In this document: positions 7,345-58,703 of the stretch, one piece after another
Layout of the letters: every line of letters begins with the position of its first letter
Position numbering within the stretch: the first letter of the stretch is position 1
Source: Eledone cirrhosa
Lineage: Eukaryota
NCBI GenBank assembly: GCA_964016885.1
Contig: OZ024756.1
Coordinates: 36,456,001-36,520,000, forward strand
Direction of reading: 5' to 3'
DNA length: 64,000 nucleotides
The notes under the pieces: generated by a model
Told to the model about the DNA's origin: nothing
What the model saw: only the letters and a program-made list of their open reading frames with translations
The model's database searches: none
Made by a program: the position numbers and the translations under genes

Positions 7345-7872
7345 CTCGAAGGAATTGTAAGGCGTCACCCTGAACACGAGTCTGGTCCCTGAACAGACTC
7401 AGGTATAGACTACTCCGTTCAATGGAAAGCTATCACTGAGTCCAAGCCATACACAAGGGGCAATCCGTCTTGTGGACTGTGTATTGAAGAAAGGATAAAT
7501 ATTCTAAGGAGATTACGCAATAGCGATTGCCTAAGTTCAAAGCGATTGCCTAAGTTCAAGGAATGAAATCTTCTCACGTTGTCCACATGTCTGGAAACAC
7601 CTCTTGAATAACTACAAAGCTCCGGATTGAATAACAACATTCTAATTTTCTAATCAACTCGAACATTTTATTCCGAGCACTCGCAGTTATCTCTCTTACA
7701 CCTTTCGCCCGTGGTTTTGTACCGCTTGGGTGAAGTGACCGTTTCTGCGCATGCGGCGGGATCATACGGTTATTTTTCCTGTTCCGTATAACCATTACCA
7801 GTCCGAACTGAAGATCCACATAAGGTGAAACAATTGTTCTCGGTATGGAACTAACTGTTGTGTTACTACTTC
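7345..7872 (+). mobile_element. 3' fragment of a Penelope-like retroelement (GIY-YIG C-terminus, Naiad-like) with a hammerhead-bearing terminal repeat, ending in (TA)n
   Basis: Translation GIDYSVQWKAITESKPYTRGNPSCGLCIEERINIL...CLSSRNEIFSRCPHVWKHLLNNY (stop 7628-7630), frameshifted by a 19-bp tandem duplication at 7522-7559; hammerhead at 7803-7843. Confidence 0.8.
7803..7843 (+). ncRNA. Minimal type I hammerhead ribozyme motif
   Basis: ccgaa-CTGAAGA-t.cc.acataa.gg.t-GAAA-c.aatt.g-TT-ctcgg; palindromic loop III; one stem I mismatch. Confidence 0.7.
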
Positions 7873-9311
7873 TATATATATATATATATATATATATATA
7901 TATATATATATATATATATATATACTTTAATGAAAACTGAAGGCCGAATTCCAAATAATCCTTTAATGTTGCAAAATTCACAATACGCATTTCTATGGTC
8001 TGCTTACATTACAGAGAATAGAGTTAACTTCGGAGACGTTATGCCATCCAGTGTTACTGCTATGACGAACCGCTTCCGTCATAGGTGAATACTAGATGGT
8101 GTTTCTTCTTCGAATCAAGCCCATTCTTTGTTTATTAGGTATGAAATTCCTTTCTACGATAAGGACATGTTCAGATTAAAGGTCAGTCGCTTCTTGGTAT
8201 CCCGGCTCACGGTATCCCGGGGATTGAAAAAACATTTGTCATCGGAGGATGACGAAGGAGACGTACTGGAACGGTCATTCCACCTCGCAGGGCTCGGGTT
8301 TGCGGGTAGCCCTCTCCTCTCCGATAGCAATAAGTAGGGATGTGGCCCCGGGCGTCAAGAACGCCTGAAGTCTCCACAACCACAGGCTCGACAGTTTATT
8401 TATATCTTTGAATATTATTTTCTACTCATCCTTCTTCCTTCCTATCAATCTTTCATTTTCACTGAACCAAGCTTTATCAATTTCCTTTATATCTCTGCAG
8501 TGGGATCGAACCCAGGACGTTTTCTTAATTATTCGCCCAACGATATATCAAAATGTAACCATAAACCCCCAACGCTTTTTTCTTTCCTCTCCTCAATAAT
8601 TTTCTCCTCTTTACTGAACCAAGCTTTATCCATTTCTCCTTTTATCTTTATTTTCTCATCATTTATATATCCAGTCCATTCTTTCGCCATTCAATATACG
8701 ACGCAGACCTCATTAAATTACGCTTTCATTAAAACAGAACTAAGACCCATACATTAAACACACCTATGTCATTCCGTACACCAGACGCACCATTATATTC
8801 TTTTATTCCTTTATTCCTATATACCCAACTATAGAAAAAGCGACAGCCTTTGTCCTGATTGAATAAGCGCCATATGAACATCTTTCACGTGTCCACCAAT
8901 CAGATCGATATGTTGAATAGCGACATCTACCGGAGAATAGCCAGAAAACAATTACAATTACATAATCGATAAGAAAAGAAATTATATTTATTTTCCGACC
9001 TTGTTTTAATTTCGTTATATATATATATGCGCACTTCGTCGAGTGCTCCAGCCTGCATATTGAGGTGTGGTATACAACCAACATAAACTCAATATATATA
9101 TATATATATATATATATATATATATATATATATATATATATAATATATAAGATCAAAAGATGGTTAAAGGAGTTCCATGTATTTTATTATGCGCATTTCA
9201 AAAACAAACATCATCATGCAATAATATTTGTGTTTTCATTAGATAAAACAGGAGAACATGATATGAAGGCTAAAAAACACTTGTGGATAGTGCAGTTTTA
9301 AATCAACATAT

Positions 9312-9697
9312 TTCCGTTTCGACGGCTATTTCTGTAGTCCAGAAATAGCCGTCGAAACGGCTTGAGCTCTGCCGTCGGGGTCATACTTTTTCCTATATAT
9401 ATATATATATATATATATATGTGTGTGTGTATGTATATATATATATATATATATATATATATATATAGGAAAAAGTAAGACCCCGACGGCAGAGCTCAAG
9501 CCGTTTCGACGGCTATTTCTGGACTACAGAAATAGCCGTCGAAACGGAAATAGCTACAGACTACAGAAATAGCTGTCGAAACGGCTTGAGCTCTGCCGTC
9601 GGGGTCATACTTTTTCCTATTTCCCACTCTACTACCCTAAGTATTGAGTACTCTGGTGCCTTATGGTCCATCTGGTTCCTTACCACAATTCTTTTGT
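9312..9697. mobile_element. Cluster of three pieces of short PLE-terminal family A in alternating orientation
   Basis: Repeated agccgtc-GAAA-cggc.ttgagctct.gccg-TC-ggggtc (3' half of a hammerhead, GUC site) with an ACTC/GAGT tail; (TA)n spacers. Confidence 0.75.
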
Positions 9698-9840
9698 TAT
9701 ATATATATATGTGTGTGTGTGTGTATATATTATATATATATATATATATATATATATATATACATACACACACACACACATATATATATATATATAAATG
9801 AAAGGTATAGAAAATATTGTAGCAAATATATATATATATA

Positions 9841-10200
9841 TGGTGGCTGCCAACTCGTTTTCGAGTACGGCCACTACTTTATATCCATGTAGGAGAACTC
9901 CTACCGATGCGCTGAACGAGTGTGACATTTTAGTCCAGCTAGCTACTTGAAAACTCTGGTACAAACACTACACCTGTGACAATTATTGACACAGTGCTGG
10001 GCCCATGGTACCATGTGACGACAAGTGCAGAGAGATCTCCAGATATAAAGCAATGCCTGTGCCGTGAAGCTTTTATAGTGAGCAAAGGCACTGCACAAAG
10101 CCAGTCCCACTCTCTTAACCAAGATGATATTTACCAAAAAGAAGAACAAGTCAACATCATTGGATACCATCAGGGTTGCAGGTGTTATATCAGAGTTTTC
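9841..10200 (-). mobile_element. RTE-like LINE 3' fragment
   Basis: CSVCTRVFK*LAGLKCHTRSAHR* (terminal CxxC...H finger) then a 3' tail hairpin ctcg.aaaa.cgag and (TA)n. Confidence 0.6.
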
Positions 10201-10537
10201 CTTCTCCTAGAATATATATATATATATATATATATATATATATATACACACACACACACATATATACATATATATTATTACTTTAGACATTTATAGCAAG
10301 TCAACAGCAGCCAGCGTTTACTGCACAACTGATCATATAGGGTGTGGTAAATAATGCCTCCGGTGAGCTGCTGAATGACGTTCAAAACCCATCAAGGATT
10401 TTATATCAAATTAATGTCTCTACATATTTTGTCGATCTCTTTTCGTTCAGCATCTAGGTTAGGGAACCTAAACAAACAGCAAACGTAAACACAGACATGG
10501 GAAAACACGCATGCATGTTTTCCCATGTCTGTGTTTA

Positions 10538-56129: not shown

Positions 56130-56785
56130 GAAGGCGCATGGCTTAGTAGTTAGAGCATTGGGCTTGCAATCGAAAGATTGTGAGTTCAATTCTCGGACCG
56201 GGTGATGTGTTGTTTCCTTGAGCAAGACACTTTATTTCACGTTGCTCCAGTTTACTCAGCTGTAGAAATGAGATGAGAGGGACTGGGGTCCCTCTCATTA
56301 AATCACCCAAGACACCTCCAACGAGATATACCTTGGAGGAGGCCAGCTAAACCTGCATAGGTGTGAGCTGTCACACACATACACACACATAGGTGTGAGC
56401 TGCCACACACACACACACACTGAGTGTTATACAATTACTCAATCAGAGCTGCTGAGACGCCTGGATTAATGGTTTAGATGTTCAGCTCAATGACATGAGT
56501 TCGATTCCCGGTCGCGTGTTGGGTCCTTGAGCAAGATTCTTTATTTTGTGTTGTTTTAGTCTACACAGCCGAGGGAAAATAAAAATGAGTTCTTGTACCT
56601 GTGATTGAAAGACCCAGCCTTCTTGTCACGGACTGTATCACGCACTGATGAATCTTCCTGAGAACTATATTAGGTGTACACGTGCCTGTGGAATGCTCAG
56701 ACACTTGCACGTTAATTTCTCGAGCATGCTGTTCTGTCTTATGAACGAGTGGGCCACTCGTCGTCGGAACCGACGGAGAGCCAAC
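56130..56785 (+). mobile_element. Two SINE family 2 copies
   Basis: Heads at about 56130 and 56455, each with a ccttgagcaaga core. Confidence 0.7.
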
Positions 56786-56819
56786 ACATGTAATACTTAA
56801 TCAACGTTGATATCGGCTA

Positions 56820-57668
56820 CACACTACCACCACTACAATCACAACCAACAACGCCGCCACCACCACCACCGCCACCACCGCCGCCAACACCAAACCACCG
56901 CCGCCACCTCCAACACGAACACCGCCACCGTCACCACCAACAGCACCACCACCACCACCACCACCATCAACACCACCACCAACACCAACACCACCAACAC
57001 TAACACCACCACCACCACCACCACCACTACTACCACACCACACCACCACCACCACTACCACACCACCACCACCACTAACACCACTACCACATCACCACCA
57101 GCACCACCACCACCACCACCACCATCAACACCACCACCACCACCACTACCACACCACCACCACCATCAACACCACCACCAACACTAACACCACCACCACC
57201 ACCACCACTACTACCACACCACACCACCACCACCACTACCACACCACCCACACCACCACCACCACCATCAACACCACCACCACCACCACTACCACACCAC
57301 CACCACCACCACTAGCACCACTACCACACCACCACCAGCACCACCACCACCACCACCACCATCAACACCACCACCACCACCACTACCACACCACCACCAC
57401 CATCAACACCACCACCAACACTAACACCACCACCACCACCACCACTACTACCACACCACACCACCACCACCACTACCACACCACCACCACCACCACCACT
57501 ACCACACCACCACCACCACCAACACCACCACCACTACTACCACACCACACCACCACCACCACTACCACACCACCACCACTACCACACCACCACCACCACC
57601 ACCACCACCATCAACACCACCACCACCACCACTACCACACCACCACCACCACCACCACCAACAACAAC
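56820..57668. repeat. (CAC)n-based compound repeat
   Basis: Directly visible. Confidence 0.95.
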
Positions 57669-58652
57669 CTTAGTTATGGTAACGCCTTATTTATCTCTGT
57701 AAACACTTTGTTGACATCGATCTCCAGTCGTTCACAATCGATACAATGAAATTAGGTTAGAGTACCATCTCCCCCCCCCCCTCTCTCTCTCTCTCTCTCT
57801 CTATCTATCTATCTATCTATCTATATATATCCCACCTCTCTCTATTTATCTCTCTCTCTCTCTCTGTGTCTCTCTCTCCTTCTCTTTCCCTCTCTCACCT
57901 CTCTCTCACCTCTCTCTCCTCTCTCTCTTTCTCTCCCCTCTCTCTCTCTCTCAATCTCAATCTCTCCCTCTCTCTCTCTCTATATATCTCTCTCTCTATC
58001 TCTCTCTCTATCTATATATACCCCCCTCTCTATTTATCTCTCTCTCTCCCTCTCTCTGTTTGTGTGTGTGTCTCTCTCTCTCCTTCTCTTTCCCTCTCTC
58101 ACCTCTCTCTCCCCCTCTCTCTCTCTATCTGCCTCTCTCTATATCTATGTATCAATCTTTCTCTCCTCCCCTCTGTCTCCCCATCTCTCTCCCCATCTCT
58201 CTCTATCTGCCTCCCTTCTCTCTCTCTCTCTCTCTTTCCCTCCTCTCTCTCTCTTTCCCTCCTCTCTCTCTCTATCTCCAACTCTCTCTCTCCCTCCCTT
58301 AGTTTCATATACTTTCTCCCCCCCCCCTCTCTTTGCTTCCCCCCTCTCTCTCTCTCTTTCTTCTTTCTTTCTCTCTTTGCCTCCTCATCACCACCTCTCT
58401 CTCTCTCCCCTCCTAGAAGTGTAACCGTACTTTTCGATAGAAGATATTGATTTACATCATAACACAGTAATGTATTGTGTGATACACGTAACCGTGGGTA
58501 TATATATATATATATATATATATATATATATATATATATATAGTAATAATAATAAATGTGAAGACTAACATCCAAAGAGGGTTCGATAAGGATAAATATA
58601 TATCAAATATATAAGAACCACAGAGCAAATAACTATTAAAATAACAGATTAA

Positions 58653-58703
58653 AGTTTAAGCAAAGAATCGCTGCTTTCACCCTTAACGGGATCTTCTGAA
58701 ACT
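58653..58703 (-). ncRNA. Second copy of the CAGAAGA hammerhead fold
   Basis: Reverse complement matches 49658-49708. Confidence 0.65.

Follow-up and report, generated by a model that had tools for sequence, protein, structure and literature searches.

What left a dense layer of hammerhead ribozyme motifs in short inserts beside (TA)n tracts in the DNA of Eledone cirrhosa? The window analyzed here is a 64-kb stretch of contig OZ024756.1 (GenBank assembly GCA_964016885.1, positions 36,456,001–36,520,000, forward strand). It is animal DNA, AT-rich, and dense in microsatellites. The inserts are very probably 3′ ends (pseudo-long terminal repeats, pLTRs), truncated on the 5′ side and often inverted, of Penelope-like elements (PLEs) that bear an endonuclease; about 14 families are involved, at least one of them Hydra-type, and the pieces are anchored in (TA)n and predicted to be mostly inactive in place. 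This origin is favored because motif matches exceed chance, 3′ ends are anchored at TA, copies are inverted, families A and J have two 3′ end points, one insert keeps a Hydra-type open reading frame (ORF) end, and the core of family N is restored in reads.

Hammerhead motifs

A type I hammerhead descriptor was run on both strands of the window and on 40 dinucleotide shuffles of its non-microsatellite segments. The strict core descriptor returned 6 matches, spread over five families, against a shuffle mean of 0.25 (maximum 2). Adding a 1-bp stem III and a 4-nt loop left 4 matches against 0.025 (maximum 1). With one core mismatch there were 8 matches against 0.28 (maximum 2) for a minimal stem III (1 bp plus tetraloop) and 14 against 1.8 (maximum 7) for an unrestricted one. 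Palindromic-tetraloop 3′ halves numbered 18, against 4.2 ± 2.0 (maximum 10) in 200 shuffles. Dropping the palindrome filter gave 49 such halves against 38 ± 6, which is not significant. The dense layer reported in a preliminary description of the window is well over dinucleotide-shuffled sequence, and its hammerhead motifs are confirmed as real and far above chance. Matches to Rfam microRNAs in the window were (TA)n and palindromes, and were rejected.

The preliminary description listed ten full type I folds. Nine pass the descriptor with at most one core mismatch and satisfy its pairing in stems I, II, and III, but only five have a canonical core (7808+, 11989−, 40771−, 41131+, and 41874−). 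The core variant is U4C at 11409+ and 21120− and U4A at 49663+ and 58698−. Because it carries C3U without G8A and has a weak stem I, the site at 12003(+) is judged to be a decayed partner copy of 11945(−), not a full fold. A 1-bp stem III capped by a palindromic or near-palindromic tetraloop was found as described; families D (11945) and J (49658/58653) are exceptions with a 3–4-bp stem III. Among the degenerate sites, those at 1631 (true core at 1656), 9200, 21412, 31233, 38225, 39419, 39571, 39888, 47485/47613, and 49430 were recovered, as were the family A pieces. At 15308/15450 a core and stem II are both present but stem I is unconvincing, and a site near 11160 was unsupported in the descriptor and self-comparison follow-up.

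Core position 4 is altered in five copies of four families (U4C at 11409, 21120, and 21434; U4A at 49663/58698, both family J). U4C is reported to lower hammerhead activity in vitro (PMC3088659). Two doubtful hammerhead-like traces were also seen: at 40308–40360 (−), CUGAGGA...GAAA leading directly into (TA)n, and at 8050–8100 (+), a GAA-like strand preceded by an 8-bp hairpin.

Minimum-energy folds of monomers were seldom hammerheads, as would be expected of forms that reportedly need dimers, and most z-scores were weak (4 of 14 below −2 or near it). In cofolding, a dimeric hammerhead was the lowest-energy fold in two of five pairs (families E and B). Motifs of families D, K, M, and A lie in long perfect hairpins. 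The layer appears to consist mostly of decayed motifs, since half of the supposedly full cores are altered and several lie inside such hairpins; its ribozymes are predicted rather than demonstrated. Most copies are predicted to be silent in place because they are single with a 1-bp stem III, have altered cores, or sit in long perfect hairpins.

Families, insertion sites, and inverted copies

Window self-comparison grouped the pieces into about 14 families, designated here by letters. The 27 segments, with boundaries set by hand, total 6,443 bp, or 10% of the window. They reach only 12% of its non-simple-repeat bases, and the proposal that much of the apparently unique DNA is PLE debris was too broad.

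(TA)4+ occurs within 150 nt downstream of 30 of 35 arms, against 29% of random positions, with paired arms not independent of each other. The median distance from GAAA to (TA)n is 65 nt in the 35 arms. Two family C arms score their own AT-rich loop at the (TA)4+ threshold and lie within 71 nt at a stricter one. Little excess was found for other dinucleotide repeats, with (CA)n near 7 of 35 arms against 12% of random positions and (GA)n near 3 of 35 against 6%. Arms are split almost evenly between strands (18 plus, 17 minus).

Adjacent inverted, 5′-truncated copies occur in eight families (A, B, D, I, J, K, M, and O). Of 11 families compared, 6 showed two 3′ end points. In these, one arm breaks off at an internal TA and passes into (TA)n, and the other runs 65–170 nt longer. 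Several copies back these end points only in A and J. No arm begins at a predicted cleavage site; the nearest starts lie 12–24 nt downstream, or upstream. None of 34 motif positions overlaps a tandem array found by TRF. A U-U junction is present at the base of stem II in families B, D, J, K, and L.

An ORF remnant of family B

Positions 7393–7630 (+) translate in two frames to the degenerate C-terminus of an endonuclease (profile positions 626–693 of 696), with a stop codon at 7628–7630. The frame is broken by a 19-bp duplication at 7522–7559. The family B hammerhead at 7803–7872 (+) lies about 180 nt past this stop, in phase with the ORF remnant. It has a canonical core at 7808 and an AAUU loop III, and its 3′ end runs into (TA)n.

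In a full HMMER search, the first 49 residues of the fragment matched 4 of 1.84 billion proteins at E ≤ 1e-3, the best at 3.2e-8. A word-indexed protein search with the same fragment gave no match, although HMMER did. The fragment is 45% identical to P0004 over 47 residues. P0003, one of the matches, retrieved 150 longer relatives, 120 of them listed. A profile of these relatives matched the six frames of the window at 7396–7515 (independent E-value, iE, 1.3e-6) and 7532–7621 (iE 0.011), with all other matches at iE ≥ 3. In 46 relatives of 650–800 aa, DKT/S and YRDD were found in 46, RW[KR] in 45, CxCX5C in 46, CxxC-E in 45, and CxH in 44. The window copy has CxxC, E, and CxH; a conserved N position reads S. 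RWK, DKT, and CxCX5C are known from the relatives only, the window fragment being the C-terminal part, with no reverse transcriptase sequence in the window. The motifs of the relatives are those that characterize the Hydra clade, in which CxxC and CxH flank the conserved E and N of the endonuclease; the clade is reported to insert in (TA)n and to carry canonical hammerheads (PMC8557442). Family B, and with it at least one family of the window, appears to be a Hydra-type PLE.

Read evidence for family N

Positions 9150–9393 were compared with two raw restriction-site-associated DNA (RAD) runs and two contig sets. The family N core at 9242 is CUAAUGA in the window. In the two runs, reads of one orientation have CUGAUGA instead in 734 of 735 and 864 of 867 cases, and those of the other orientation agree (279 of 282 and 142 of 143). 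A G-U pair in stem II is A-U in most reads. Depth tapers gradually toward the 5′ side, and the sequence runs on past 9311. The piece at 9150–9311 (−) is a decayed copy of a longer element whose consensus core is intact.

Extrapolating the density of the window to the genome was rejected. From read depth per base sequenced, family A would have about 7 copies per Mb and family N about 1.4, which is about 25-fold below the window; the estimate is rough and RAD-biased and covers one subfamily at 85% identity. Because of this difference, the window may be a hotspot for hammerhead pieces. Hotspots of transposable elements and 30 recently active Penelope families are reported for O. vulgaris (PMC13282606).

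Origin of the inserts and alternatives

The claim that many PLE families target (TA)n here is supported by the Hydra-type ORF remnant, which is in phase with one hammerhead, as well as by the inverted copies, the tails, and 3′ ends that are specific to TA. In published work, the GIY-YIG endonuclease of a PLE nicks AT-rich DNA, reverse transcription begins at either of two internal sites on uncleaved RNA and so yields an optional tail, and the hammerhead is assisted by protein (PMC11167929). Junction palindromes have been interpreted as self-priming (PMC3846280). In the window, copying would usually abort within 50–250 nt, often at or just beyond the hammerhead hairpins. The new strand would fold back and prime itself, leaving an inverted copy, and the short arm would be joined at an internal TA. 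In a full-length tandem element, two hammerheads would join through the palindromic loop III and cut as a dimer; no cleavage is predicted for fragments that are isolated or paired with an antisense strand.

Several results weigh against a PLE origin. The ORF link takes two steps (fragment to P0003 to its relatives) over about 75 residues, and an ORF can be assigned to only one family out of about 14. About 800 nt upstream of the family F hammerhead gave no match in Pfam, ESM Atlas, or a protein search. Rfam returned no hammerhead match in the window at gathering score, and at E ≤ 10 no hammerhead family was among the matches listed (best 150 of 542; 8 of 8 in a second search). Cofolds of family G were partly dimeric, and those of C and N were not. 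The long arm of families D, K, M, and O is a single copy whose extra length may be flank, and published tails measure 30–40 nt, against 65–170 nt here. CUGANGA is in none of the 12 family A hammerhead arms, and no shared sequence upstream of family A was seen among the loose ends listed from RAD-biased reads.

Two readings apply to family A: stem II is a hotspot of truncation, or the family is a short non-autonomous derivative. It is possible, if unlikely, that certain families, A in particular, did not arise by truncation of a long element but are short non-autonomous derivatives of PLEs that have a fixed 5′ end of their own (about 135 nt for A) and were mobilized in trans. Twelve of 14 family A arms start 7–25 nt upstream of GAAA and two start downstream. 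Between 9357 and 9330, read depth drops from about 12,900 to about 1,200, and upstream loose ends agree at 0.37–0.52, compared with 0.55–0.79 at true continuations (RAD-biased, from the loose ends listed only); family N tapers and continues instead. However, a strong stop of reverse transcription at a long stem II gives an identical picture, the reads carry restriction-site bias and pile up at 9197, repeats break up the contigs, and loose ends are listed only in part. In addition, arms 52728− and 41502− have a second upstream variant in common, and 52728− may still hold the core's end. The half that family A keeps is well formed, with a 4-bp stem III in most arms, GUC present, and a GAGCUC loop palindrome (AAGCUU in one arm). 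The palindrome center could be a stem II loop copied from the template or two truncated arms joined by TA, which fit read variants at 9334–9335 equally. A more specific and rather doubtful proposal is that family A is a very abundant non-autonomous Penelope derivative of about 135 nt that keeps only the substrate half (GAAA, 4-bp stem III, conserved palindromic loop, and GUC) and has its fixed 5′ end in stem II. The half-ribozyme hairpin would stop and re-prime reverse transcription for spread, and the enzyme strand of full-length partners could cleave family A transcripts in trans. If true, family A would place tens of thousands of ribozyme target sites genome-wide.

The preliminary description had also suggested retrozyme-like elements. 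Retrozymes without long terminal repeats (non-LTR retrozymes), as cleavage-to-cleavage monomers from circular RNAs, would account for type I hammerheads in short, dispersed units of low GC content, and they are reported to derive from pLTRs, with solo copies included (bioRxiv 10.64898/2026.07.22.740005). This origin is very improbable here: none of the 34 motif positions is inside a tandem array, no arm starts at a predicted cleavage site, units are inverted rather than head-to-tail, and one bears an ORF end. The host might have kept the hammerheads for a role in RNA processing, such as within an intron, given a probable host exon from about 62930, which could place the window in an intron or beside a gene. 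This is highly implausible with arms on both strands in near-equal number, half of the supposedly full cores altered, and several buried in long hairpins. Chance matches in AT-rich repetitive DNA would agree with the Rfam result, the mostly weak monomer z-scores, and the unfiltered 3′ halves. As an account of the set, chance is refuted by the strict matches and has next to no probability; the family N consensus restores the core, and the position of the motif is fixed near the 3′ end. Weak single sites (near 11160 and at 15308/15450) may still be chance.

Pieces of the individual families

Family A is represented by nine pieces. The piece at 9306–9393 (+) is a fold-back with the 3′ half of the hammerhead, and its short arm stops at an internal TA. 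An inverted short arm and a long arm with a tail occupy 9468–9697 (+). Inverted pairs are at 10536–10772 (+), where one arm has the AAGCUU loop palindrome, 14047–14229 (+), and 58830–59009 (−). At 11545–11620 (−) there is just a tail, its truncation lying downstream of the hammerhead; a single arm with (TA)n at both sides is at 41290–41428 (+); and an inverted short arm with a tail arm is at 41461–41600. The decayed arm at 52610–52752 (−) has the longest upstream stretch and may preserve a trace of the core's 3′ end. A type II (circularly permuted) hammerhead was rejected for this family, with no core-like sequence on either strand of the 9564–9697 body beyond the stem II arm. Family A patterns had 0 matches in viral contigs. 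Their 20 matches in metagenomes were rejected as 19–27-nt chance hits in contigs of 49–74% GC without TA tracts. A near-perfect 54-bp palindrome at 10485–10538 adjoins a family A inverted arm.

A second family B piece at 38183–38278 (−) is cut off at its core (38247) and has a short inverted arm. The second family N piece, at 31107–31305 (+), has a C3U core at 31237, a shortened stem II, and a GCGC loop III. Family Q is a decayed minimal hammerhead at 1650–1733 (+) without stem III, with its core at 1656 and its 3′ end at (TA)n.

Family C pieces are at 11291–11515 (+), with a hammerhead at 11404–11458 (U4C core at 11409, AUAU loop III), and 40673–40946 (−), with a hammerhead at 40722–40776 (canonical core at 40771). 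Upstream, a short and mostly open frame enters the hammerhead in both copies (11291–11409, +; 40771–40889, −) and could be an ORF overlapping the pLTR. The family E piece at 21029–21235 (−) has a hammerhead at 21077–21125 with a U4C core at 21120 and an AGCU loop III. Family F, at 21319–22241 (−), has a minimal hammerhead at 21434 (U4C, no stem III) and about 800 nt of upstream sequence, whose resemblance to a GIY-YIG end was judged by eye only. The family G piece at 41068–41213 (+) has a hammerhead at 41121–41185 with a canonical core at 41131 and a 10-bp stem I. Family H pieces are at 39539–39673 (+), where the core at 39577 is intact and stem III is decayed, and 41784–41930 (−), with a hammerhead at 41828–41882 and a canonical core at 41874.

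Family D is an inverted pair at 11924–12120 that forms one long hairpin, with a canonical core and 3-bp stem III at 11989− and a decayed core at 12009+. Family M is a palindrome at 15273–15512 with core and stem II in both arms and an unconvincing stem I. Inverted pairs with 3′ halves only are at 39325–39484 (family I), 39765–39957 (family O, GCGC loop), and 47262–47683 (family K, AAUU loop, long arm about 160 nt longer). Family L, related to I, is a 3′ half with an AUAU loop at 49372–49534 (−). Family J comprises an inverted tail arm with a hammerhead at 49546–49722 (+; hammerhead 49658–49708, U4A) and a piece with a tail at 58543–58725 (−; hammerhead 58653–58703, U4A).

A TA-flanked family at 38316–38570 and 44449–44605 has inverted arms, copies 99% identical over 100 bp, and no hammerhead motif; it likely represents PLE ends truncated downstream of the ribozyme. 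A TA-anchored pair of 65-bp repeats (94%) at 9028–9091 and 40947–41010 is possibly the tail of another family.

Other features of the window

A Mariner/Tc1 transposon at 19495–20700 (+) has terminal inverted repeats and an uninterrupted 343-aa transposase frame at 19603–20634 (HTH_48, Transposase_1, and DDE_3), and it may be recent. Pfam, run on 36 hand-picked frames of 280, found only this mariner transposase; it was also blind to Hydra-type relatives (6 proteins). The probable host exon at 62930–64000 (+) has a splice-acceptor-like site, after which an N/S-rich frame stays open as far as the end of the window, 371 aa after its last stop. Minisatellites at 26670–27626, 59392–60184, 42148–42736, 22859–23518, and 5585–5924 have periods of 90, 79, 33, 31, and 32 bp, respectively, and contain no hammerheads. 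An abundant SINE-like (short interspersed nuclear element-like) family is found at 37617–37975, as a 189-bp tandem, and for example at 3020–3130, 17330–17450, 46400–46640, and 54097–54215. These dispersed repeats presumably resemble octopus SINEs.

Relation to known systems

The class is already in print, as hammerhead PLE ends in (TA)n and as a Hydra element of Octopus; the families reported here are new members, and their density is notable. In Hydra-1_Obim, the ORF end is followed by about 150 nt, a hammerhead, about 35 nt, and (TA)n, and published Hydra hammerheads often have a U-U junction (PMC8557442). Family B resembles the Hydra clade as described there (Craig et al. 2021) in its C-terminal CxxC-E and CxH, a hammerhead 150–180 nt after the stop near the 3′ end, (TA)n insertion, and the U-U junction. 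By its hammerhead sequence it is a separate family (by-eye comparison with File S2), and only about the last 75 residues survive; most other families of the window have no clade assignment.

Published PLE insertions (Arkhipova et al. 2013, PMC3846280; Frangieh et al. 2024, PMC11167929) show head-to-head inverted copies, junction palindromes, a tail on one arm, and hammerheads intact across the cleavage site, as from an uncleaved template, like those in the window. They differ from the window, whose short arms stop at an internal TA and whose family A breakpoints lie clustered in stem II. Retrozymes of the non-LTR kind (Cervera and De la Pena 2020, PMC7229834; bioRxiv 10.64898/2026.07.22.740005) likewise have type I hammerheads in short non-coding repeats with a proposed pLTR origin. 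Their 150–450-bp head-to-tail units contrast with the window, which lacks tandem units and has ends off the cleavage sites.

Hammerheads are reported elsewhere as massive in number, heterogeneous, mostly single, derived from truncated PLEs, and weak in dimer cleavage (PMC4209133, PMC6765202). The landscape of a 2017 survey, as related in PMC6765202, matches the window in its type I motifs with 0–1-bp stem III, palindromic loops, many heterogeneous families, mostly single motifs of truncated PLEs, and some opposite-strand pairs 100–700 bp apart. In the literature searched on cephalopod and octopus hammerheads, ribozymes, and Penelope (including PMC8967140), no genome-wide count was found; these families may already be recorded in supplements or repeat libraries. 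The window has about 90 strict matches per Mb, and the survey reports about 2,000–9,000 per genome with different descriptors (PMC6765202). If typical of the genome, the window would be among the densest hammerhead landscapes described. At approximate genome sizes, the survey rate is about 5–10 per Mb.

About 14 families are packed into 64 kb as pieces that were missed by Rfam and resemble unique sequence. The many fresh fold-back insertions form a natural data set on how PLEs invert their copies and whether ribozyme hairpins set the breakpoints.

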